A stretch of DNA of 38,795 nucleotides from a virus, in UHGV virus genome UHGV-0423091. One strand, written 5' to 3'. The notes below the pieces were generated by a model. It ran no database searches. It was not told the origin of the DNA and saw only the letters and a list, made by a program, of their open reading frames with translations. The translations under genes were made by a program, and so were the position numbers. Positions 12,125 to 33,306 of the stretch are shown here, one piece after another (positions within the stretch are counted from its first letter, which is position 1; the number at the start of each line of letters is the position of its first letter).

Positions 12125-12214
12125 ATCAATGACTCCGTACGCAATTAAATTATTACCAATTTAACCACATATGATTTATTTATCGTAGATAGTTGACATT
12201 TAACGCACAAATTA

Positions 12215-12229
12215 TTACCTTTCAGGTAA
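12215..12229. promoter_or_regulatory. operator-like palindrome TTACC-tttca-GGTAA next to a TTGACA box (12193-12198)
   Basis: Perfect copy of the dispersed 15-bp palindrome, in the intergenic region between the 68-aa gene and the tRNA. Confidence 0.45.
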
Positions 12230-12551
12230 GCAAAGAGTTCATTCCGGTTATTAACCTGACTGGCTTGTCGTTAAATTGAACAGGTGGAGTGAGCTTTTAT
12301 TTTGAGCAGTACGGCGTATGGCACATGCGCCGATAGCGGTCTGGATACGTTTAAGGGGCACCCTCCCTTGCTCGGGCAAACGAACCAGGTAGCCGGAATG
12401 TGCAAGTCGAGCGGTTTTATTCCGCGCACGGGGATTCACCATCCCGGCGATTCGGTGTGACGCCTCGGAAGAGACGAGGGTACAACGATGAGAGCATTTA
12501 TGGAGCCGCGACAAAGTGTGGCGCCTTAACAGGCTAAGTGCTCTCAGCGTT

Positions 12552-12628
12552 GTGGCATTAGCTCAGTTGGACAGAGCAACCGCCTTCTAAGCGGTTGGTC
12601 GCAGGTTCGAATCCTGCATGCCACGCCA
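12552..12628 (+). tRNA. tRNA-Arg (anticodon TCT, reads AGA/AGG), argU-like
   Basis: Hand-folded cloverleaf: 7-bp acceptor GTGGCAT/ATGCCAC, D-arm GCTC...GAGC, anticodon stem ACCGC/GCGGT with loop CTTCTAA, T-arm GCAGG-TTCGAAT-CCTGC, discriminator G and encoded CCA. Confidence 0.85.
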
Positions 12629-12671
12629 GAATCACGCCTAAGGACCGTGATGCCAGAAGTTCCAGGTGCTT

Positions 12672-12715
12672 GGCGGTGATAGTTTCCCTTGAAGGACTAT
12701 CACCGCCCTTTTTAC
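12672..12715 (+). terminator. strong rho-independent terminator after the tRNA
   Basis: Perfect 12-bp stem GGCGGTGATAGT / ACTATCACCGCC with a 12-nt loop, followed by CTTTTT. Confidence 0.7.
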
Positions 12716-12791
12716 AGCAGGACGCCATTGCGATGACTTCATGCTGTAAACCCGTGCAGCCACGGAAGGCATAACTCATTGCTTCCAGTTC

Positions 12792-12815
12792 GCCCGGTTC
12801 GCCGGGCATTTTTTT
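12792..12815 (+). terminator. second intrinsic terminator (GCCCGG-UUCG-CCGGGC plus T7)
   Basis: 6-bp GC stem with UUCG tetraloop followed by seven T. Confidence 0.55.
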
Positions 12816-12831
12816 GCTTGATGACCGCAAA

Positions 12832-12849
12832 TTACCTTAAAGGTATAAT
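12832..12849. promoter_or_regulatory. operator-like site TTACC-ttaaa-GGTAt overlapping a perfect TATAAT (12844-12849) just upstream of the moron gene
   Basis: One-mismatch copy of the dispersed palindrome; consensus -10 hexamer. Confidence 0.4.
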
Positions 12850-12850
12850 C

Positions 12851-15141: not shown

Positions 15142-15734
15142 TGATTACCATCCTGACGTTCTTTGAGTCGCTTCCTGGCTGCTGCTATGCGATCAGCAAT
15201 TGTCACATTCACATTAACATCCAGACGTTCTTTGAACGCGTTGACATCAACATGCTTACCAATCAGCTCAAGGTTCTTCACCTTGTCAGGCCATTTAATT
15301 TTTTTGAGGATTGTCTCTATCGAATCCTCGTTCATGTTCATGATGGTCGATGACAAATCAAAGCCACTAAGCGTAGTGCGCCAGATTTTCGGCCACTCAC
15401 GGATTGGTTTAAGGCTCCCATCGTCGTTGAGGATGTCGATCACGTCCATCTGGTCGATCTGCACCAGGCGCATGAGAACGTAATCAGCACTGACGCGCAT
15501 TCGTTTGTTGCGCTCCTCCATCAACTCGGCAATCCGTTTTTGAATGCGTTCATCGCGCATCATGACACTGGCTTTAACTGCCGCTGTATTTGGGGAGAAT
15601 CCTGCGTTAATCGCTGCCTGAGTCTGGTTTTCAGGCGTTTTGATGTATGACTGGCAATAAGCCTCCTGCATTGCTGTTAGTGGCTTAAATTGCGTTGATT
15701 TGCGTTTATAGGTTTTAGGTTCAGCAGGCATCAT
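15138..15734 (-). CDS. terminase small subunit, about 198 aa
   Basis: Track ORF 15138..15812 trimmed to tandem ATGs at 15734/15731, because a terminator hairpin lies inside the track's N-terminal extension. Confidence 0.65.
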   Translation of the reverse strand: MMPAEPKTYKRKSTQFKPLTAMQEAYCQSYIKTPENQTQAAINAGFSPNTAAVKASVMMRDERIQKRIAELMEERNKRMRVSADYVLMRLVQIDQMDVIDILNDDGSLKPIREWPKIWRTTLSGFDLSSTIMNMNEDSIETILKKIKWPDKVKNLELIGKHVDVNAFKERLDVNVNVTIADRIAAARKRLKERQDGNQ

Positions 15735-15766
15735 AACCACCGTGGTAATAGTTACCGTTATGGTAA
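15734..15766. promoter_or_regulatory. two tandem operator-like sites (TaACC-accgt-GGTAA and TTACC-gttat-GGTAA) overlapping the terminase small subunit start and SD
   Basis: Dispersed palindrome copies at 15734-15748 and 15752-15766. Confidence 0.45.
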
Positions 15767-15775
15767 TAGTACCAT

Positions 15776-15803
15776 GCAAAATAAAGCCGCCATAGTTGGC
15801 GGC
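15776..15803 (-). terminator. intrinsic terminator in the late-operon leader (GCCGCC-6 nt-GGCGGC then TTTATTTTG on the minus strand)
   Basis: 6-bp GC stem followed by a T-rich tract on the coding strand, about 45 nt upstream of the terminase start. Confidence 0.55.
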
Positions 15804-15852
15804 AGTATTCAAAACCCATCAAATTCATCATGCATAATCTACTCGTGACATG

Positions 15853-16191
15853 TCACACTATTAATTTCGTTTCATGCCAGCCTTTAGTCACCCAGCATTG
15901 CGAGTCACCATTACACGGGCATGAATTAACTGGAACTCTCTCGCCGCACTTACCGCAACATTTTCTGCTGATCGATTTTATACGCCCGCGCACGCGTGCA
16001 TCATCCTGGCGGATCAGTAACGCTATATACTCACCAAATTCGTAAGGCGCACGCCCGGGGCGACGCGTGGCACAGTTACGCTCCAGCATTTCAATTTCCT
16101 GAGCATCAAGCACAATTTCCAGCTTACGCACACCAGATGCAGCTTGTCTGGCTCTCTGAGCGGCTTTGCGCTCTGCTGCTGATTTAGCCAT
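15853..16191 (-). CDS. Cys-rich (zinc-ribbon-like) small protein, 112 aa; candidate late-gene regulator
   Basis: C-terminal CCGKCGERVPVNSCPCNGDSQCW cluster; last early-operon gene before the late leader. Confidence 0.5.
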   Translation of the reverse strand: MAKSAAERKAAQRARQAASGVRKLEIVLDAQEIEMLERNCATRRPGRAPYEFGEYIALLIRQDDARVRGRIKSISRKCCGKCGERVPVNSCPCNGDSQCWVTKGWHETKLIV

Positions 16192-18721: not shown

Positions 18722-18798
18722 TTACCCCTGAGGTAATTAAAAACCACATAAGACACGAAATCAATAGATTTTAGAATATTTTATTACCTAACAGGTAA
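18722..18798. promoter_or_regulatory. two perfect operator-like palindromes (18722-18736 TTACC-cctga-GGTAA; 18784-18798 TTACC-taaca-GGTAA)
   Basis: Both lie in the intergenic region upstream of the DUF1064-like gene. Confidence 0.45.
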
Positions 18799-19636: not shown

Positions 19637-20433
19637 GCTTCAGGGCTGTTCCAGTGCGGAACGTTGTTATCAGGTAATGTTGATTGCTTCTGTCTGCTAA
19701 TCTGCAGCCGCCTTGCCAGCTTCTGCTCCCACTGCGCCTGATGGTATGCCTTACCCTCAGCCATCCAGTAAATTCTGAACTCTGCAAGTTCCTGTGCCGT
19801 TGGCAGACTGTCCAGGTAGATCCCCTGCAATGAGCTTTTCCGAAGAAAGTCATCTGATGGTTGCCATTGTTCATGCATGACAAATTTGCCTAATTGCCCT
19901 GGCCCACCAGGAGGAACAAAGTTATTCATCACGGCGTTGTTTGCGCCGGGGTCATGAGGCACAGAATCCCCGCTTTTTGTCCTGCTCTCCCTCTCTTGGT
20001 TAAATGACTGGTTATATGACTGGTTCTGGATCCCGTTTTTGGGATCATTCAACATCCCGTTTTTGGGATCATTCAACATCCCGTTTTTGGGTATATTCCC
20101 GTTTTCGGTAACATTACCGTTTTCGGGTTCATTACCCCCTTCCCGGTTGCCTTTAATGTTCCCGTTTTTGGTTATATTAAGAGAGAAAACCCGCACTCTT
20201 TTCGTCGCTCCCTTTCTCTCTCCGGTATCTGAAATAAGCCCCATTTTCATGAGCGATATAAGCCCGGCCTGCACGGTTTTTTTATTCAGGCAAGTGTCTT
20301 TAACGAGGCGTTCTATGCTGGGGTAGCAGAGGTTATATTCATCGGCTCTGTCAGCCATCGAGAGCAGTATGAGCTTTAATGACGAGCTACCTGGATCTGT
20401 CTCCCAGGCCCAATCTGTTGCATGTCTGCTCAT
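19618..20433 (-). CDS. replication initiator, lambda O-like role, 271 aa
   Basis: Immediately upstream of the P-like gene; N-terminal HTH-like region; iteron array embedded in the coding sequence. Confidence 0.65.
   Translation of the reverse strand: MSRHATDWAWETDPGSSSLKLILLSMADRADEYNLCYPSIERLVKDTCLNKKTVQAGLISLMKMGLISDTGERKGATKRVRVFSLNITKNGNIKGNREGGNEPENGNVTENGNIPKNGMLNDPKNGMLNDPKNGIQNQSYNQSFNQERESRTKSGDSVPHDPGANNAVMNNFVPPGGPGQLGKFVMHEQWQPSDDFLRKSSLQGIYLDSLPTAQELAEFRIYWMAEGKAYHQAQWEQKLARRLQISRQKQSTLPDNNVPHWNSPEAWEDFL
20031..20177. repeat. iteron array (candidate origin of replication) inside the O-like gene
   Basis: Seven direct repeats with core TCCCGTTTT(T/C)GG: two identical 24-mers (20031-20054, 20055-20078), three 18-mers (20079-20132), a degenerate copy and a final copy at 20160-20177. 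Confidence 0.7.
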
Positions 20434-20448
20434 GATTAATCTCCGCTA

Positions 20449-20649
20449 TCAGCTTGAATGTTGTGGGGAGGAATTAATCATGATCTGCTTAATCTCTGCC
20501 CTGATACGACGGTTTGATTCCATGGTGCACTCAACACAGTGTCCGTTGTAAACCCAGCGTTCACTGTCATGTCCGTGCTTACATGTTTTTCCGGTGTAGT
20601 AGCGTTTAAGTCCGCGCTTTGCGGCATCAATACGTGTAATGATTTCCAT
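20449..20649 (-). CDS. small Cys/His-containing protein, 66 aa (CII-position gene, function unknown)
   Basis: Track ORF trimmed to ATG 20649; CKHGH...CVEC motif; sits between the Cro-like and O-like genes. Confidence 0.4.
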   Translation of the reverse strand: MEIITRIDAAKRGLKRYYTGKTCKHGHDSERWVYNGHCVECTMESNRRIRAEIKQIMINSSPQHSS

Positions 20650-20729
20650 GGTAAGCCCTGTTATTAGTATTGGGATTACGGTCATTTTGTGCTGACACAA
20701 AAAAAATATCAACCAGATTTGGTTTTTTA

Positions 20730-20744
20730 TTACCTTTGAGGTAC
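20730..20744. promoter_or_regulatory. operator-like site TTACC-tttga-GGTAc
   Basis: One-mismatch palindrome between the post-cro terminator and the 66-aa gene. Confidence 0.4.
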
Positions 20745-20754
20745 GAATAGATAT

Positions 20755-20777
20755 GAAAAGACCGCCGGGTGGCGGTC
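20755..20777 (-). terminator. intrinsic terminator just downstream of the Cro-like gene (tR1-like position)
   Basis: 7-bp stem GACCGCC/GGCGGTC with 4-nt loop followed by TTTT on the minus strand. Confidence 0.5.
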
Positions 20778-20799
20778 TACAGAGGGTTGTAGCTGGATA

Positions 20800-21030
20800 T
20801 CATGAGTAGAAGAAGTATGCCAGTTCTGCTTTTGAGCGCAGCCATTGTCTTGTTTTACAGGCTTTAAAAAGCCCATTCATCAATACTTTACCTGGCATTT
20901 TGCGCTTACCTGTTAAGTGAGTCTGGATATAGTGACTCGTCGTTCCGGCTTCCTGTGCGAAGGCTTCACGCTCATCCGGAGTAAGTGCAAGCCAGTGCTT
21001 TTTGAAATCGAAATGTCCGTTATCGCTCAT
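20800..21030 (-). CDS. Cro-like HTH regulator, 76 aa
   Basis: Divergent from the repressor gene across an operator-rich intergenic region; HTH-like segment FAQEAGTTSHYIQTHLTGKR. Confidence 0.5.
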   Translation of the reverse strand: MSDNGHFDFKKHWLALTPDEREAFAQEAGTTSHYIQTHLTGKRKMPGKVLMNGLFKACKTRQWLRSKAELAYFFYS

Positions 21031-21066
21031 AGCTATTGCCTGATATTTATTTCAGATAATAAATAT

Positions 21067-21129
21067 TCACCCATAAGGTAACAAAAATCAAGGATAGTTA
21101 CCTATGAGGTGCATTTACCTGTTGGGTAA
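21067..21129. promoter_or_regulatory. tripartite operator cluster with divergent promoters between the Cro-like and repressor genes
   Basis: Three palindrome copies: 21067-21081 TcACC-cataa-GGTAA, 21098-21112 TTACC-tatga-GGTgc, 21115-21129 TTACC-tgttg-GGTAA. Confidence 0.6.
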
Positions 21130-21184
21130 TATTGCTTTAAATTGAATCATCTACTGATTCATATATGAGGCGATTTTCCAGAAA

Positions 21185-21769
21185 ATGAAAAGTATCCAGG
21201 ACGTCCGCAGGCAAAATCTCAACGACTTGATCGACCGTGAATTCAATGGTGTTCAGACGCGGATGGCAGAAAAACTTGGAACTCAGGCAAATCTGGTAAA
21301 CCGCTGGGCTCTTGGCAAGAAGGTTATCGGCGACCAGGTTGCACGAAAAATTGAAGCTGCCGCCAATAAACCCCGTAACTGGCTTGATATTGATCGCTCG
21401 CTTTCTCAGGAGGGTTTTCAGCCTGTCGGCCCGAGCGATATAGGTCAGCTGGCGGCTCACAACCTGGAACGCTGGATGAGCGAAAGCCGCGACCTTTCAA
21501 CGCAGGGAAAACTACACCGCGCATCCGGCGTCGCCCAGGTGACAATCAGCCGCCTGTTAAACAATGAGGTCAGCGTTTCCATTTCCACCCTGGAGAATGT
21601 TGCATCCGCATTCGGGCGTCACGGCTATGAATTACTGATTCACCCGCACGACCCTGCGACCATCAACTATGATCGCTCGCGCTACGCATTGTTACCCGAA
21701 ACCGAGAAAGCAAAGATCGAAAGTTACATTGAATTTGTCATCAACCAGAACGAAAAAAACAAACAATAA
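21185..21769 (+). CDS. phage repressor (CI role), 194 aa, two HTH-like segments, no S24 peptidase domain
   Basis: Divergent from the Cro-like gene; HTH-like segments near residues 25-45 and 110-135; no Ala-Gly/Ser-Lys autocleavage module; no SD (leaderless-like start). Confidence 0.65.
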   Translation: MKSIQDVRRQNLNDLIDREFNGVQTRMAEKLGTQANLVNRWALGKKVIGDQVARKIEAAANKPRNWLDIDRSLSQEGFQPVGPSDIGQLAAHNLERWMSESRDLSTQGKLHRASGVAQVTISRLLNNEVSVSISTLENVASAFGRHGYELLIHPHDPATINYDRSRYALLPETEKAKIESYIEFVINQNEKNKQ

Positions 21770-21790
21770 AATCATATTTTTCAGTAAGTA

Positions 21791-21816
21791 AGCCGCCAGA
21801 AGGCGGCTTTTTTATT
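21791..21816 (+). terminator. rho-independent terminator after the repressor gene
   Basis: AGCCGCC-AGAA-GGCGGCT followed by TTTTTTATT. Confidence 0.75.
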
Positions 21817-21826
21817 GCCTATTCGA

Positions 21827-21903
21827 TTACCTAATGGGTAATTTTTTTAACTCATATCTATTGACATCAAACCAGATACGCATAATTATTACCTCAACGG
21901 TAA
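21827..21903. promoter_or_regulatory. second operator pair with sigma70-like promoter (TTGACA at 21861-21866) for the plus-strand recombination operon
   Basis: Perfect palindromes at 21827-21841 (TTACC-taatg-GGTAA) and 21889-21903 (TTACC-tcaac-GGTAA), the latter over the -10/start region. Confidence 0.55.
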
Positions 21904-21922
21904 CAGACCGAGGTAACAAGTT

Positions 21923-22075
21923 ATGCAGTGGAAAATCATCAACGGTTGGTACTGCGTTACTGCATGCGGATTCATGAGCTGGAAGTTCCGCACCTTACAG
22001 GAAGGCATTAAGTGGGCTTTCGTCAGCAAAGAAGCTCGCGATGTGGCCAACGATAACGAGATATGGGAGGGCTGA
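21923..22075 (+). CDS. small ORF, 50 aa, Cys/Trp-containing
   Basis: ATG 21923 with AGGT 6 nt upstream; below the 60-aa track cutoff; first ORF after the promoter. Confidence 0.3.
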   Translation: MQWKIINGWYCVTACGFMSWKFRTLQEGIKWAFVSKEARDVANDNEIWEG

Positions 22076-22077
22076 TA

Positions 22078-22377
22078 ATGAACGTTAATCAGCAGAAAAA
22101 TCTTCAAAAAATCATGCTGGCATTCGACAAGGACTACCGCCTGTCAGAACAGCTATATGACCGACAAGTTGAACTGATTGAGAGTATCCGGCTTCATCAA
22201 CTGGCATCAACTTTCGACGTTGTAACAGTTAAAGGCGTTCGCCAGGAAGTACTGGAGGCCGCTAAAGACAGCCCTGAGTTCGAAGAACTAATGGATGCCT
22301 ACCGGCGCGAGGCAATGGCAATTATCGCCCGCTGGGATCTGGCTGATCAGATTGATGGGCAGAGGGACGCGGCATGA
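22078..22377 (+). CDS. hypothetical early protein, 99 aa
   Basis: Track ORF 22063..22377 trimmed to ATG 22078 with GGGAGGG SD. Confidence 0.5.
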   Translation: MNVNQQKNLQKIMLAFDKDYRLSEQLYDRQVELIESIRLHQLASTFDVVTVKGVRQEVLEAAKDSPEFEELMDAYRREAMAIIARWDLADQIDGQRDAA

Positions 22378-23195
22378 ATCCGGGAATTTATTTCGATATC
22401 AGCAACGAGGACTACCACGCCGGTGACGGCGTGAGTAAGTCGCAGCTAGATATGGTGGCTAAGAACCCTGCCCTTCTGAAATGGGTGAAGGCTGCTCCGG
22501 AAGACGAAGAGAAGAAGTCTGCACTGGACATGGGTACTGCTCTGCACTGTCTGCTTCTGGAACCTGGAGAGTTTGACAAACGCTTCATCGTTTCACCGAA
22601 ATTCGATCGTCGGACAAAACAAGGTAAAGCTGACGAAGAGGCATTTATTCGTGATGTAGCGGATATGGGGATTTCGGTACTTGATGCAGAGCAGTGGCGA
22701 AAACTGGAGCTGATGCGTGATAGCGCAATGGCTCACCCGGCGGCACGCTGGATGTTGGAAGCACCTGGTTACTGCGAAGCATCAATGTACTGGAACGATG
22801 AAGATACGGGTGAGTTGTGCCGAATTCGTCCAGACAAATGGCTGAACGAGCACAACGTGATCGTCGACGTGAAAAAGGTTGCAGATATGGACCGTTTTGC
22901 ACGCCACATCGAGGAGTTCCGCTACCACGTGCAGGACGCAATGTACCGCGAAGGCGCAATGAGGGTTACTGGTCAGCCACATGGTTTTTTCTTTCTTGCC
23001 GTGAGCGAAAGCATTGATTGTGGTCGGTATCCGGTACGCGTGTTCGAGCTGGATGCGCCGGATGTCGATGCCGGGCACGCTCTGTTCCGCCGGGATCTGA
23101 ATACCTATCACGAATGCCGCATCAACGATGAGTGGGGCGGAGTGGAAATTATTAAACGCCCTGACTGGGCACGTAAACAGGATATGTACGTATGA
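22374..23195 (+). CDS. PD-(D/E)XK-type exonuclease (YqaJ/RecE-like recombination exonuclease), 273 aa
   Basis: Coupled to the downstream annealing-protein gene; IVDVKK-type nuclease motif. Confidence 0.6.
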   Translation: MNPGIYFDISNEDYHAGDGVSKSQLDMVAKNPALLKWVKAAPEDEEKKSALDMGTALHCLLLEPGEFDKRFIVSPKFDRRTKQGKADEEAFIRDVADMGISVLDAEQWRKLELMRDSAMAHPAARWMLEAPGYCEASMYWNDEDTGELCRIRPDKWLNEHNVIVDVKKVADMDRFARHIEEFRYHVQDAMYREGAMRVTGQPHGFFFLAVSESIDCGRYPVRVFELDAPDVDAGHALFRRDLNTYHECRINDEWGGVEIIKRPDWARKQDMYV

Positions 23196-24073
23196 GCAAT
23201 GATATCGCAATCACATCACAACCAGGCGCAACTGTAGGTACTGCTGCGGCAATCTTCAGCCCGGAGGGCATGAATCAACTGGTGCGTTTCGCGGAGTTGA
23301 TGTCACAAAGCAAAGCGACTGTACCGAAACATCTTGAAGGCAAACCTGCCGATTGTCTGGCGGTGACCATGCAGGCGGCACAGTGGGGAATGAATCCTTT
23401 CGCCGTGGCGCAGAAAACGCATGTGGTAAACGGAACGTTAGGCTACGAAGCACAGTTGGTAAACGCGGTCGTATCCTCTTCCAGCCTGCTAGCGACACGC
23501 CTGAATTATCGCTGGAGCGGTGACTGGTCGAATGTTAACGGCAAAACAGATAAATCACCGAATCTGACGGTAACTGTGTCAGCAGTTCTTAAAGGAGAAG
23601 CAGAACCCCGTGAGCTTACCATCAGTATGGCGCAAGCCGGAGTGCGTAACTCTCCATTGTGGGAACAGGATCCGCGCCAGCAGCTTGCCTATCTTTGCAC
23701 GAAACGATGGGCTCGCCTGCACGCTCCTGATGTACTTCTCGGTGTTTACACCCCTGACGAATTACAGGAAACGGCACCGCGCGTTGAGCGAGACATTACT
23801 CCGCAAACGACCACTGCTGCGGGAATGAACAGTCTGATCAACGCTAAACCAGCGAAAAAGCCTGATGAGCAAACGCGTAAAGCGGATAGCCGTGATCCAG
23901 AAGAAATGCTGATGGCCTTTACCAGCGCAGCGATGAATTACAGCACTGTCTCCGAACTGGATAAGGCTTACAAATACATTGCACAAAAACTTTCAGATGA
24001 TGACGAACTGCTGGCAAAAGCCACCGACGTTTACAGCGTTCGTCGGGAAGAATTAAACGAAACATCTATGTAA
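23192..24073 (+). CDS. single-strand annealing protein, Red-beta (Bet) family, 293 aa
   Basis: Segments GMNPFAVAQ and ERDITP parallel lambda Beta as I remember it; paired with the exonuclease. Confidence 0.7.
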   Translation: MSNDIAITSQPGATVGTAAAIFSPEGMNQLVRFAELMSQSKATVPKHLEGKPADCLAVTMQAAQWGMNPFAVAQKTHVVNGTLGYEAQLVNAVVSSSSLLATRLNYRWSGDWSNVNGKTDKSPNLTVTVSAVLKGEAEPRELTISMAQAGVRNSPLWEQDPRQQLAYLCTKRWARLHAPDVLLGVYTPDELQETAPRVERDITPQTTTAAGMNSLINAKPAKKPDEQTRKADSRDPEEMLMAFTSAAMNYSTVSELDKAYKYIAQKLSDDDELLAKATDVYSVRREELNETSM

Positions 24074-26868: not shown

Positions 26869-27186
26869 AATTCACCCGTATAGAAACCATTTTCATGACG
26901 GTATGAGAGTATACCTTTAAGGTAATACCGTCACCTGTACCGCCGAAAAATATGGTGTAGAGTGAATAGAAATGAATACATAAAAACAAAAAACCCTCTG
27001 TAAAAACAGAGGGTTAAATTAGTATCTGAATAGGAATGAGTTGCTATGAGTTAGCTGTTAATCATTCCCACTCAATTATTTACGGATACAATAACCAATT
27101 GAGTGATAACATTTTTCCAAATCTCAATTTTTACCGTACCGTTTTATATACCGTCACCGGAAATCAGTACCATGAAAAATGCCATG
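26869..27186. other. candidate attP / integrase control region
   Basis: Non-coding 318 bp immediately upstream of the integrase; 11-bp direct repeat ATACCGTCACC at 26925-26935 and 27148-27158; nested palindrome GACGGTAT...ATACC-tttaa-GGTAA-TACCGTC; TACCG repeats at 27132-27141. Confidence 0.3.
26981..27013 (-). terminator. rho-independent terminator ending the tailspike-lysis operon
   Basis: CCCTCTG-6 nt-CAGAGGG followed on the minus strand by TTTTTTGTTTTT. Confidence 0.7.
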
Positions 27187-31870: not shown

Positions 31871-31885
31871 TTACCTTTATGGTAA
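31871..31885. promoter_or_regulatory. operator-like palindrome TTACC-tttat-GGTAA
   Basis: Perfect copy in the divergent control region between the tailspike and antirepressor operons. Confidence 0.45.
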
Positions 31886-31924: not shown

Positions 31925-31940
31925 CTGTATAAATATACAG
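31925..31940. promoter_or_regulatory. LexA (SOS) box CTGTATAAATATACAG
   Basis: Perfect CTGT-N8-ACAG with AT-rich spacer, flanked TA...TT, 22 bp upstream of ATG 31962. Confidence 0.7.
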
Positions 31941-31961: not shown

Positions 31962-32219
31962 ATGCAGCGGTATCACTATCCACTGGAAGACGGATTTACC
32001 GAAAGGATTCACACGCCGGGAGGCGTCAGGTCACTGGTGGAGGGATCGCACTTGATGAAATTACTCCGGGATCTCGATAAGGATGGATTTAATGTCGATG
32101 GCCCACTTGCCGAACTGACTGCACTGATTAACTACGTCACCAGCTCACAGATGTCTATGCAGGATCTGCAAACACATCTCGACTATTGTGCCGAACAATT
32201 ACGAAAACAAACCAGATAA
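31962..32219 (+). CDS. small protein, 85 aa, paralogous to the C-terminal domain of the downstream antirepressor; candidate small antirepressor
   Basis: Track ORF trimmed to ATG 31962 (GGAGAAG SD); by-eye alignment to antirepressor residues ~150-225 (IHxPxGV...E.S.LM.LL..L..DG..V.G..AEL...DxQTH). Confidence 0.55.
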   Translation: MQRYHYPLEDGFTERIHTPGGVRSLVEGSHLMKLLRDLDKDGFNVDGPLAELTALINYVTSSQMSMQDLQTHLDYCAEQLRKQTR

Positions 32220-32222
32220 GGT

Positions 32223-32265
32223 TTGCAATTACCAAGTGGAGTGCTTATATTTACCATTGCGGTAA
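32223..32265 (+). promoter_or_regulatory. sigma70-like promoter (TTGCAA-N17-TATATT) with operator-like site TTACC-attgc-GGTAA (32251-32265) over the start region
   Basis: Near-consensus -35/-10 with 17-bp spacer; palindrome overlaps the -10 and predicted +1. Confidence 0.45.
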
Positions 32266-32532
32266 ATTTACATCGCACTCCTCTTGTGCCATAGTAATCG
32301 GGCACTGGCAAAATCCAGTGCCGGGATTGGCGTTCCGGATTACTACAGAGGCACATATGCCGCATAAGCGGTTTTTTTATGTGTAAAGCGCACCTATTCT
32401 ATGGTGGGCTGTGTGGGGGCACCGAAAGGTGCGCCGGGTTCCTTTGTAGCCGGTTACGCCAACCCTGCACAGTTCACCACCAACCGATTGGCGTCGGTAG
32501 TGGTGATTAACCTAACTACAAAGGTGATCACT

Positions 32533-33219
32533 ATGACTGCTAACGTAACCCCATCTGTTTTTCATTTTGAATCAGAAGCAACCATTCGAGCCATTGTTAT
32601 TGATGGAAATCCTTGGTTTGTTGCCAAAGACGTTATTAAAGCTCTTCAACTGACAAACCCCACTATGTCAATAAAATCTCTTGATGATGATGAAAGGGCT
32701 AAATTTAACTTAGGCCGTCAAGGCGAAACCAATATTATCAACGAGTCAGGCCTCTACACACTGATCCTCCGCTGCCGCGACGCAGTGACACCAGGCACTA
32801 TCCCCTACCGCTTTCGTAAATGGGTTACAGGTGAGGTTCTTCCTCAGATCCGCCGCACCGGAAGTTACATTAAAAACTCGCTCCCGCAGGAAGAACGCAT
32901 AAAGATGGTTGCCGACCAAGTAGCCAACGCCACGGCGTCAGCAGTGATGCAGGCAATGAAGATAGAGAACAAAACCTACAGTGCACCACTGAAGCCCGGC
33001 TACCGCAGCCTGATTCATTCGCCGTCTGGTGTTCTCGGCCTGACGGAGAACTCACTGCTGATGAATTTGCTGAACCAGTTACAGGAAGACGGGCATGACG
33101 TATCGGGCGCGGCGGCGGAGCTGACCACCATGTTCTGCTACATCGTCGGTGTGAGCAAATGCCTGCGTGATATCCAGACGCACGCGGAGTACATCAACGA
33201 CAAAGCAGGGTTCTTCTGA
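32533..33219 (+). CDS. antirepressor, Bro-N domain family, 228 aa
   Basis: Track ORF 32401..33219 trimmed to ATG 32533 (AAGGTG SD); N-terminal Bro-N-like segment IRAIVIDGNPWFVAKDV...LYTLILRC. Confidence 0.7.
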   Translation: MTANVTPSVFHFESEATIRAIVIDGNPWFVAKDVIKALQLTNPTMSIKSLDDDERAKFNLGRQGETNIINESGLYTLILRCRDAVTPGTIPYRFRKWVTGEVLPQIRRTGSYIKNSLPQEERIKMVADQVANATASAVMQAMKIENKTYSAPLKPGYRSLIHSPSGVLGLTENSLLMNLLNQLQEDGHDVSGAAAELTTMFCYIVGVSKCLRDIQTHAEYINDKAGFF

Positions 33220-33291
33220 CGGGCGGCGGCACAGGGATGTGCCTTTAAATAATTCTGTACAGATTGCAGACTGGGGGTGAATAGCGTACTA

Positions 33292-33306
33292 TTACCTTAA
33301 AGGTAA
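33292..33306. promoter_or_regulatory. operator-like palindrome TTACC-ttaaa-GGTAA upstream of the accessory module
   Basis: Perfect copy 43 bp upstream of ATG 33349. Confidence 0.45.

Follow-up and report, generated by a model that had tools for sequence, protein, structure and literature searches.

The locus at 20,755-21,903 of the window (the whole 38,795-nt stretch of viral DNA, UHGV-0423091, that was analysed) raises the question of how a prophage is released from a repressor without a self-cleavage domain, and how its early transcription proceeds past a terminator when no N-like antiterminator can be identified. An earlier note had described the region as lambdoid, with a minus-strand Cro-like gene, three operators, a plus-strand repressor gene, a terminator, two further operators and a promoter, an order likened to the OR-cI-OL arrangement of lambda. 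Each of these features was recovered within a few bases of its earlier position (Table 1), and the likeness to lambda holds for the layout: the Cro-like and repressor genes diverge around a tripartite OR, and a terminator, OL and PL follow. As a description of the element, however, "lambdoid" does not stand. The window shares ~98% identity with phiV10 and ZX5 and, judged by this relatedness, is a Uetakevirus, a temperate podophage of the phiV10/epsilon15 type; its immunity region is 98% identical to those of phiV10, ZX5, and PAS61, and alignment shows that the OR and OL layouts are kept in Tyrion, epsilon15, SPC32H, and one Klebsiella phage. We estimate at roughly 85% the probability that a phiV10/epsilon15-type podophage has its primary immunity region here and that the region works by the Rep-Ant mechanism of SPC32H, and not by lambda-type autocleavage. 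The repressor, its missing autocleavage domain, the antirepressor, and the operator sites are already known from the literature or database records for phiV10, ZX5, epsilon15, and SPC32H.

The repressor, Rep, has the same sequence as phiV10 gp40 and ZX5 ORF21 (100% identity). In a phmmer search, its residues 1-190 match PDB 5D50_A, SPC32H Rep, with an E value of 4e-42, which makes it a homologue over the full length. In an AF2 model (pLDDT 79), an XRE-type helical bundle at the N terminus is followed by another, HTH-like one and by a helix at the C terminus. The top Foldseek matches of this model are 5D50 and 5D4Z, the target-normalised TM score for the C-terminal half being at most 0.74; this half corresponds to the fragment of SPC32H Rep whose structure is 5D4Z, not to S24 folds. 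The domain search in Pfam returned HTH families only (HTH_3 twice) and no S24, as had been expected; PF00717 (S24) is carried by none of the 86 Rep homologue clusters, and the Ala-Gly dipeptide is absent from the Rep sequence. In the literature citing SPC32H, the Rep domains are named DBD, MDD (middle dimerisation), and CAD/TetDloop (PMC9986798). The two HTH-like segments seen earlier in the 194-aa protein are real, and the second, by analogy, corresponds to the middle dimerisation domain of SPC32H Rep and would not be a second DNA reader. Citing papers also describe SPC32H Rep as a DNA-binding tetramer that is removed by its antirepressor, with the Ant tetramer disassembling it (PMC9638917, PMC9986798). 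On homology, Rep is a member of this already studied, antirepressor-inactivated family, and its lack of a self-cleavage domain is explained by this membership, the family being switched off by a small, DNA-damage-induced antirepressor. That the protein acts as the immunity repressor, as the earlier note proposed, is borne out in ZX5, where overexpression of the identical ORF21 abolished free phage and reduced holin and endolysin transcripts by >99.9%, and where the lysogen is inducible by mitomycin-C (PMC9782041).

The matching antirepressor gene, ant, lies ~10 kb from the immunity region, behind a perfect and conserved LexA box. Exact CTGT-N8-ACAG occurs twice in the window, and an A/T-rich spacer is found only in this box; together with the adjacent operator, the box is conserved in SPC32H and epsilon15. 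The gene is therefore predicted to be under SOS/LexA control, and the missing S24 domain is no puzzle, since Rep would belong to a known Rep-Ant system with a LexA-controlled antirepressor. Both LexA control of ant and Rep-operator binding are proposed here on the basis of secondary citations, database annotation, and sequence conservation. Upon DNA damage, LexA would leave the box upstream of ant and Ant would be made; Ant would then bind the C-terminal region of Rep and release Rep from DNA. In this scheme Rep would bind DNA through an HTH domain at its N terminus, dimerise through a middle HTH-like domain, and carry a C-terminal element for tetramerisation and Ant binding.

The putative Rep binding site is the palindrome (A)TTACC-N5-GGTAA(T). 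Its three OR copies between rep and the Cro-like gene are co-linear with those of SPC32H and epsilon15; one sits in the PR spacer and two would adjoin the rep promoter. At OL, one site covers the -10/+1 region of PL, with the second 62 bp upstream; since the first T of the downstream operator is also part of the -10 element, this operator spans about -7 to +8. PL reads into the gp39/gp38/recE/recT operon, whose first gene encodes a 50-aa protein of PHROG 898 (unknown function). No convincing hexamer pair for a PRM-like rep promoter was found between OR3 and the ATG at 21185, nor was a good Shine-Dalgarno sequence found for rep. In epsilon15, the rep transcript may be leaderless, with TACAAT 4 nt before the ATG, an arrangement that the window does not show. 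A direct repeat (20711-20735/21870-21894) was considered as a second plus-strand promoter; it has neither a -35 nor a -10 element and was treated as a remnant.

Table 1. Features of the immunity region and of related regulatory loci in the window (positions are those of the window; a dot marks features without an assigned strand).
Feature	Coordinates	Strand	Evidence and remarks
Exact operator upstream of gp3-like head gene	12215..12229	.	Overlaps a plus-strand TTGACA promoter pointing at tRNA-Arg
Adjacent operator pair, centres 18 bp apart	15734..15766	.	Between terminator and TerS start codon (15731, -)
Operator pair 62 bp apart flanking TTGATT-17-TTTAAT	18722..18798	-	Behind terminator, before DUF1064 gene
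66-aa Cys/His-rich protein, PhiV10p42 homologue	20449..20649	-	PHROG 1081, function unknown; first gene after Cro-like terminator
Promoter-like element TTGATA-17-CAAAAT	20684..20712	-	Putative promoter upstream of gp42-like and replication genes
Sixth operator copy, TTACCTTTGAGGTAC	20730..20744	.	1 mismatch; directly behind Cro-like terminator
Intrinsic terminator 3' of Cro-like gene	20759..20778	-	-15 kcal/mol, z -4.8; annotated terminator in phiV10
Cro-like gene	20800..21030	-	76 aa, PhiV10p41 homologue; PHROG 35 "transcriptional repressor", E 5.6e-13
PR-like promoter of Cro-like gene, TTGTTA-17-TATTAT	21056..21084	-	Spacer holds OR1; conserved in Tyrion
OR1 operator, TCACCCATAAGGTAA	21067..21081	.	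1 mismatch; position conserved in Tyrion, epsilon15, SPC32H
OR2 operator, TTACCTATGAGGTGC	21098..21112	.	2 mismatches; motif search and cross-phage alignment
OR3 operator, TTACCTGTTGGGTAA	21115..21129	.	Exact; motif search and cross-phage alignment
rep, 194-aa prophage repressor	21185..21769	+	Pfam HTH_3 twice; PDB 5D50_A match; 100% identical to phiV10 gp40
Intrinsic terminator 3' of rep	21790..21809	+	-14.8 kcal/mol, then U6 tract; annotated in phiV10
OL upstream operator	21827..21841	.	Exact; 19 nt upstream of PL -35
PL promoter, TTGACA-17-AATTAT	21861..21889	+	10/12 matches; conserved; -35 at 21861-21866, -10 at 21884-21889
OL downstream operator	21889..21903	.	Exact; 62 bp from upstream OL copy
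Operator between terminator and int	26911..26925	.	1 mismatch; between strong terminator (27015-26992) and int start codon; epsilon15 equivalent at 26882
Exact operator between tail-fibre and ant genes	31871..31885	.	Conserved in SPC32H, epsilon15; epsilon15 label "protein_bind repressor"
LexA box, CTGTATAAATATACAG	31925..31940	.	Exact; 22 nt upstream of ant start codon; conserved in SPC32H, epsilon15
ant, 85-aa SPC32H-type antirepressor	31962..32219	+	88% identical to SPC32H Ant; PDB 5D50_E, E 1e-46
Promoter TTGCAA-17-TATATT with exact operator (32251-32265) over -10/+1	32223..32265	+	Reads into isrK, C4, Bro-N antirepressor
isrK-type small RNA with own terminator	32302..32378	+	Rfam RF01394, 71 bits (gathering score 50)
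C4-type antisense RNA	32397..32484	+	Rfam RF01695, 84 bits (gathering score 45)
Second antirepressor, Bro-N plus C-terminal SPC32H Ant-type domain	32533..33219	+	Pfam Bro-N; PHROGs 130, 450
Promoter TTGCAG-17-TACTAT with exact operator (33292-33306)	33264..33306	+	Before two accessory genes

On the other side of OR, the Cro-like protein matches PHROG 35 only: a PDB search (E up to 1) returned nothing, and Pfam gave no meaningful hit; the protein may bind the same sites as Rep. Its gene is directly followed by a terminator, as had been noted, with an 8-bp G+C-rich stem, a 4-nt loop, and a short U4 tract, and Tyrion, the Klebsiella phage, epsilon15, and SPC32H all retain a hairpin there. Equally, no N-like antiterminator or nut-like boxA could be detected: boxA (8-mers and 12-mers) has no match within 20400-22400, i.e. 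near PL/PR, and no Arg-rich, N-like small open reading frame is present there, the Arg-rich hits being only shadow frames inside known genes. Behind the terminator lies a promoter-like element that matches the consensus at only 9/12 positions. Across five phages, which come from three host genera, its TTGAT and AAAAT do not change, unlike the flanking sequence. The operator between the terminator and this element has a GGTAAT half-site that is likewise invariant in five phages; it lies upstream of the -35 of the promoter-like element, which is not the classic repressing position. We propose that this conserved promoter would start transcription of the replication genes anew, so that an N-like antiterminator would not be needed, which may explain why none was found.

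Beyond OR and OL, the TTACC-N5-GGTAA motif occurs throughout the window, with 10 exact copies where 0.01 are expected (none in 100 shuffles). If up to two mismatches are allowed, there are 39 copies where 11 are expected; matches with one or two mismatches inside genes (e.g. 28846, 28867) were treated as probable chance matches. The earlier note had missed the sixth operator copy, this genome-wide spread, and the antirepressor genes elsewhere in the window. The operator usually overlaps a -10 element just behind a terminator: at six loci a terminator immediately precedes an operator, and five promoters behind terminators share the same -10/operator geometry. At the operator pair before TerS there is an extended -10, TGgTACTAT, at 15774..15766, and the double arrangement is also found in epsilon15, where one site is annotated as repressor-binding. 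Epsilon15 also has a 62-bp operator pair (35907/35969) matching that before the DUF1064 gene, and its equivalent of the operator upstream of the gp3-like head gene is annotated as repressor-binding; altogether, its RefSeq record labels seven such sites "protein_bind: repressor".

A second antirepressor gene lies downstream of ant, behind an operator-overlapped promoter and matches to isrK- and C4-type RNAs. Its product is 40% identical to the small Ant and matches PDB 5D50_E (E 1.5e-13), and its open frame runs in phase back to 32401. The loop of the C4-type RNA, CCUUUGUAG (9 nt), is complementary to the Shine-Dalgarno region of this gene (32516-32524), 8 nt before the ATG at 32533. The encoded Bro-N/Ant-domain antirepressor probably reinforces the switch, a role that we infer.

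Taken together, the operators placed just behind terminators at most other unit boundaries (replication, nin-like, late/TerS, int, and accessory genes), usually sharing their first T with the -10 element, suggest that one repressor would silence each unit directly. It is possible, and proposed here tentatively, that a single repressor governs the entire programme of phiV10-type Uetakeviruses, with no N- or Q-type antitermination, and that induction runs through a three-layer, double-negative circuit. For every unit, the late operon among them, transcription would begin at a sigma-70 promoter (with an extended -10 for TerS) that has a Rep operator over -10/+1 right behind a terminator. In the circuit, LexA would repress the small Ant, Ant would inactivate Rep, and Rep would repress the isrK/C4-gated Bro-N/Ant-like antirepressor, which would act as positive feedback to commit the switch. 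The sequence features, homologies, and conservation come from the present analysis, and the repressor function (ZX5) and the Rep tetramer and Ant action (SPC32H) from the literature, the latter through citing papers; which promoters fire, how far Rep occupies each site, and how the Cro-like terminator is bypassed we infer from these.

One may argue that the phage instead follows a lambda-like cascade, in which an unrecognised antiterminator lets PR transcripts pass the Cro-like and other terminators and the downstream promoter-like elements are minor. Stable hairpins are indeed conserved at unit boundaries, the phage encodes several small regulators without an assigned role, among them possible antiterminators (the 66-aa Cys/His protein, a PHROG 536 regulator encoded just before TerS, and an AlpA-family protein), and an early/late temporal order is not explained by direct Rep control of the late promoter alone. 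We nevertheless regard such a cascade as unlikely, given the missing boxA/nut-like sequence and Arg-rich N-like frame near PL and PR, the short U4 tract of the Cro-like terminator, the invariance of TTGAT-17-AAAAT behind it in five diverged phages, and the five promoters with one -10/operator geometry behind terminators. It is quite improbable, too, that the main ligand of the sites beyond OR and OL is not Rep but another phage regulator, for instance the Cro-like protein or an activator, in which case they would serve in lytic-phase control or as roadblocks and would not be lysogenic operators. Repressors and Cro-type proteins usually have operators in common, and the sites at 20730, 21827, and 18784 lie upstream of a -35, a position typical of activators; yet the dispersed sites have the same sequence as those at OR and OL, most overlap -10/+1, the epsilon15 record annotates them as repressor sites, and overexpression of the ZX5 repressor shuts off lysis-gene transcripts.

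Two further alternatives concern Rep itself. The record of phage BP9 names the protein "antidote protein VapI", and there is a weak, sub-threshold Pfam match to YdaS_toxin, which might point to a generic XRE regulator or antitoxin and not the immunity repressor. However, rep and the Cro-like gene point away from each other with a tripartite operator between them, the rep product is identical to a protein that behaves as a repressor in ZX5, and SPC32H Rep, a homologue, was co-crystallised with its antirepressor, so this reading is very improbable. As for RecA-stimulated self-cleavage by a cryptic non-S24 protease, only the mitomycin-C inducibility of the ZX5 lysogen speaks for it, and its probability is close to negligible: S24 is found in no family member and an Ala-Gly site is missing, the C-terminal half of Rep matches the 5D4Z fragment, which the citing literature describes as oligomerisation domains, and a LexA-controlled Ant is encoded.

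Among the closest described systems is SPC32H Rep-Ant (PDB 5D50, 5D4Z), from the same genus, with a Rep ~42% identical over its full length and diverged mostly outside the N-terminal domain, an Ant 88% identical, the same LexA box and operator upstream of ant, the same TTACC/GGTAA half-sites, and the same OR/OL layout. The window phage adds to it the Bro-N/Ant-domain antirepressor with isrK and C4 RNAs, and the window operators at 20730, 12832, 32251, and 33292 are absent or weaker in SPC32H and epsilon15. Compared with phiV10 and ZX5, there is essentially no difference within 20,755-21,903: phiV10 has gp40/gp41 equivalents, and its record annotates the same genes, "two helix-turn-helix motifs", and both terminators. 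The ZX5 paper names only the Bro-N protein as an antirepressor and leaves the small Ant homologue hypothetical (PMC9782041). In epsilon15, whose gp38 repressor is 42% identical to Rep, the same ATTACC-N5-GGTAAT sites occur at OR, at OL, before TerS, gp3, and the nin-like unit, and between ant and the tail fibre, but their central five bases are more A/T-rich, and two mismatches are found in the site that follows the Cro-like terminator. With lambda, the window shares a repressor gene and a Cro-like gene that diverge around three operators, the second operator cluster at the leftward recombination operon, and the terminator after the Cro-like gene; unlike lambda, it has no S24, N, or nut, its operators are spread genome-wide, and its Rep is of a kind described as a tetramer removed by an antirepressor.

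The logic of the switch is found in other phages. Lemire et al. reportedly described, in 2011, LexA-controlled antirepressors that inactivate non-cleavable phage repressors, and Gifsy-1/3, coliphage 186 (Tum), and N15 (AntC) likewise set an SOS-induced antirepressor against a non-cleavable repressor, with proteins that are, to our knowledge, unrelated to Rep and Ant. In P1 immI (c4-icd-ant) and Gifsy-1 isrK-orf45-anrP, isrK/C4 matches also lie directly upstream of an antirepressor gene (PMC4825925), and the P1 immI-type likeness extends to a C4 loop complementary to the antirepressor ribosome-binding region. In contrast to both, the window promoter carries the operator of the prophage repressor, and the C-terminal domain of the antirepressor resembles SPC32H Ant. 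A single repressor with many genome-wide sites ("stoperators") is mentioned for mycobacteriophages L5/L1 in PMC1934351. Those sites are asymmetric and lie within transcription units, whereas the window sites are palindromes at promoters behind terminators. We know of no relationship between the L5/L1 repressor and Rep.

In summary, as a discovery the region matters little, and its modest, testable extensions of the SPC32H model would be the terminator-then-operator organisation and the two-antirepressor circuit. The immunity region is, however, present at at least 95% identity in 540 of 5,426 complete E. coli genomes, so correct annotation would improve many records. Such an annotation would cover rep and the Rep operators, the small ant gene under SOS control, and the second antirepressor with its RNA gating.

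All features listed for 20755-21903 in the earlier note are found, and its gene order is confirmed at the coordinates in the table below: a Cro-like gene on the minus strand, three operators (OR), the repressor gene rep, a terminator, two further operators (OL) and PL, the promoter into the recE/recT operon. The terminator directly after the Cro-like gene is likewise in place, and the PL -10 and the downstream OL operator share one T, at the end of the former and the start of the latter. Both terminators are already annotated in the phiV10 GenBank record, which labels the 194-aa protein (Rep) 'putative transcriptional repressor, two helix-turn-helix motifs'. Over 1.7 kb around the immunity region, identity reaches 98% to Escherichia phages phiV10, PAS61, ZX5, phiv142-3 and others, and 76-78% to Enterobacter phages Tyrion and BUCT554; matches to the same phages cover 85-91% of the first 25 kb of the window. 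These relatives are Uetakeviruses, i.e. epsilon15-like temperate podophages, and the immunity region occurs at at least 95% identity in 540 of 5,426 complete E. coli genomes. The recE-like and recT-like genes (22374-24073) are two separate overlapping ORFs (273 and 293 aa) in the window; the phiV10 record annotates this region as one fused 'recET' gene.

Regulatory features of the window; operators outside OR and OL are exact or one-mismatch copies
Feature	Position	Strand	Details
Operators	12215, 12832
Terminator end before operator	~12807	+
Operator pair	15752 + 15734		adjacent, directly before TerS start codon
-10 sharing T with operator, TerS unit			TGgTACTAT, extended -10, also in epsilon15
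Terminator end before operator	15786	-
Operator pair	18784 + 18722		62 bp apart, spacing as at OL
Terminator end before operator	~18815	-	weak 4-bp stem, annotated in phiV10
-10 sharing T with operator, nin-like unit			TTTAAT
Promoter-like element	20712..20684	-	TTGATA-17-CAAAAT, directly behind Cro-like terminator
Sixth operator	20744..20730		directly behind Cro-like terminator
Terminator after Cro-like gene	20778-20759	-	-15 kcal/mol, z -4.8, only U4 tract; ends before operator
Cro-like ORF	20800-21030	-	76 aa
OR, three operators	21067-21081, 21098-21112, 21115-21129
Repressor ORF	21185-21769	+	194 aa
Terminator after rep	21790-21809	+	-14.8 kcal/mol, U6 tract; ends before operator
OL, two exact operators	21827-21841, 21889-21903
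PL promoter	21861-21889	+	TTGACA-17-AATTAT, 10/12 matches; -10 shares T with operator
Operator	26911-26925		1 mismatch; between 10-bp-stem terminator and int start codon; kept in epsilon15
Terminator end before operator	26992	-
Operator	31871-31885		between ant and tail fibre
Promoter with exact operator over -10/+1	32223-32265		TTGCAA-17-TATATT, downstream of ant
Operators	32251, 33292		-10 sharing T: TATATT (32251), TACTAT (33292)
isrK-type RNA	32302-32378		71 bits
C4-type antisense RNA	32397-32484		84 bits
Bro-N protein	ATG 32533, end 33219

A Pfam domain search bears out the description of a repressor with two HTH-like segments and no S24 module: Rep contains HTH_3 twice (best stretch 106-147) and a weak N-terminal YdaS-type HTH (21-61), no S24 peptidase is detected in it by Pfam, and the Ala-Gly dipeptide is absent from its sequence. 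In a search of solved structures, residues 1-190 match the SPC32H repressor in the repressor-antirepressor complex 5D50 (E 4e-42), and the C-terminal half also matches the SPC32H Rep fragment 5D4Z. The same two entries are the top structural matches of a model predicted with AlphaFold from 26 homologues (pLDDT 79). In it, an N-terminal helical bundle (helices 4-59) and a disordered linker (74-83) precede another bundle of helices (83-151), after which the chain runs on in extended form and ends in a long helix. According to passages in papers citing the SPC32H work, its Rep has N-terminal DNA-binding, middle dimerisation and C-terminal tetramerisation/Ant-binding domains and sits on DNA as a tetramer, with DNA-binding pairs forming across dimers; the antirepressor Ant, itself a tetramer, engages two Rep dimers and takes the Rep tetramer apart (PMC9638917, PMC9986798). 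By analogy with this account, the second HTH-like segment would fall in the dimerisation domain rather than be a second DNA reader.

The Rep family is broad among Enterobacteriaceae prophages, with 86 clusters whose identity ranges over 52-98%. Almost all have a length of about 194 aa, and an S24 domain is found in none of them. Rep itself is 100% identical to ORF21 of ZX5, whose overexpression abolished free phage and lowered holin and endolysin transcripts by 99.97-99.99%, supporting the 194-aa protein as the immunity repressor; mitomycin C induces the ZX5 lysogen (PMC9782041). Compared with the Reps of SPC32H, epsilon15 and a Klebsiella phage, that of the window is 42-45% identical overall. 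The N-terminal domain (21185-21400 in the window, with the NLVNRW helix) and the operator half-sites are conserved among them, so phages of different host genera may be partly homoimmune. In epsilon15, the major repressor was reportedly identified experimentally, as the abstract of its genome paper is said to state.

The window also encodes a homologue of the small SPC32H antirepressor, an 86-aa protein whose gene adjoins the tailspike gene. The product of ant (31962-32219, plus strand, 85 aa) is 88% identical to SPC32H Ant and matches 5D50 chain E (E 1e-46). A putative LexA box, CTGTATAAATATACAG (31925-31940), lies 22 bases upstream of the start codon; exact CTGT-N8-ACAG occurs twice in the window, with an A/T-rich spacer only here, and the box, the adjacent operator and the intervening sequence are conserved in SPC32H and epsilon15. 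Kim & Ryu (2013) are said to have reported that LexA represses ant in SPC32H. Because of this homologue behind a conserved LexA box, together with that reported repression, a putative induction route for the protease-less repressor, missed in the earlier note, is present 10 kb from the immunity region. The homologous ZX5 gene is annotated only 'hypothetical protein'. The Ant proteins (88%) are far more conserved than the Rep C-terminal halves that they bind.

A further promoter downstream of ant reads into an isrK-type RNA, a C4-type RNA and a Bro-N protein, the second antirepressor, whose last 80 residues share 40% identity with the small Ant and whose C-terminus matches 5D50 chain E (E 1.5e-13). 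One loop of the C4 RNA, CCUUUGUAG, shows complementarity to 32516-32524, where the Bro-N gene has its ribosome-binding region, and a second C4 patch of 7 nt pairs with 32488-32494. In phase, the Bro-N frame stays open as far back as 32401, with 44 'Ash'-like codons overlapping the C4 RNA. This locus resembles P1 immI and the isrK-orf45-anrP locus of Gifsy-1 (PMC4825925), whereas SPC32H and epsilon15 are without such a module. In the ZX5 study, the protein tested as 'the' anti-repressor was that phage's own Bro-N protein, for which 39% identity to its counterparts in phiV10 and phiv142-3 is reported; the small Ant homologue was left hypothetical (PMC9782041). A plausible role for the second antirepressor is positive feedback, in which SOS-induced Ant would lift Rep and so allow its expression.

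As for the terminator after the Cro-like gene, the failure to identify an N-like antiterminator holds: neither a boxA-like sequence in the leaders of PL and PR (the promoter of the Cro-like gene) nor an Arg-rich small protein was found, and the gene nearest PL encodes a function-unknown protein of 50 aa. When five phages that infect three host genera are aligned, all keep the hairpin; the GGTAAT half-site, TTGAT and AAAAT do not vary, unlike the bases around them. Most economically, transcription of the replication genes could restart behind the terminator, in which case no antiterminator would be required. The element directly behind the terminator is, however, a modest promoter match, with the sixth operator upstream of its -35. 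A non-homologous antiterminator may act instead, which we regard as unlikely. The first gene behind this terminator (20449-20649) encodes a 66-aa Cys/His-rich protein (C-x3-H ... C-x2-C, PHROG 1081), conserved across the genus, that could be a regulator. Inside the DnaT-domain replication-initiator gene, three tandem repeat arrays at 19997-20136 (12 bp x2.4; 24 bp x2.6, 100% match; 18 bp x3.1) look like origin iterons, by analogy with lambda ori inside gene O.

Operators extend well beyond the immunity region: TTACC-N5-GGTAA occurs 10 times without mismatch in the window, where 0.01 such copies are expected (0 of 100 shuffles reach 10), and 39 times with at most two mismatches, where 11 are expected. 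In epsilon15 the same motif lies at equivalent places, seven of them labelled 'protein_bind: repressor; lysogeny' in RefSeq, and the OR and OL layouts, half-sites included, align among the window, Tyrion, epsilon15, SPC32H and one Klebsiella Uetakevirus whose Rep is just 45% identical. In five promoters the operator's first T doubles as the final base of the -10 hexamer, so that a protein bound there would span roughly -7 to +8. Six terminator hairpins, five of which rank with the genome's strongest, each have an operator 12-67 nt behind them. Because of these overlaps and terminator-then-operator loci, the genome looks like a series of units insulated by terminators, in each of which an operator overlaps or adjoins the unit's own promoter. 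The operator before int suggests that the repressor also controls int expression.

At the late (TerS) operon (15731-15810), a strong terminator is followed by the extended -10 and two operators 18 bp apart, as in epsilon15; the neighbouring gene on the upstream side (15853-16191) is a member of PHROG 536, 'transcriptional regulator', and no Q-like late regulator is evident. Within 12190-12850, a plus-strand TTGACA promoter with exact operator 12215 over its -10 points away from the head genes, towards tRNA-Arg(tct) (12552-12628) and then terminators at 12672-12707 and 12792-12807. Operator 12832 overlaps ATGACC-17-TATAAT, and the mRNA of the 112-aa plus-strand gene behind it may be near-leaderless, since TATAAT stands only 4 nt before its ATG.

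In summary, the initial observation is confirmed and its interpretation supported, and the immunity-region finding is already known: the phiV10 record annotates the region, the ZX5 study tested an identical repressor, work on SPC32H has characterised the Rep family in structure and mechanism, and the epsilon15 record marks the dispersed operators. The puzzle of a region with neither S24 nor N would dissolve because of LexA-controlled Ant and the terminator-then-operator/promoter modules. Two modest extensions of this picture, the division into insulated units under repressor control and the circuit with two antirepressors, are no discovery but worth a note.
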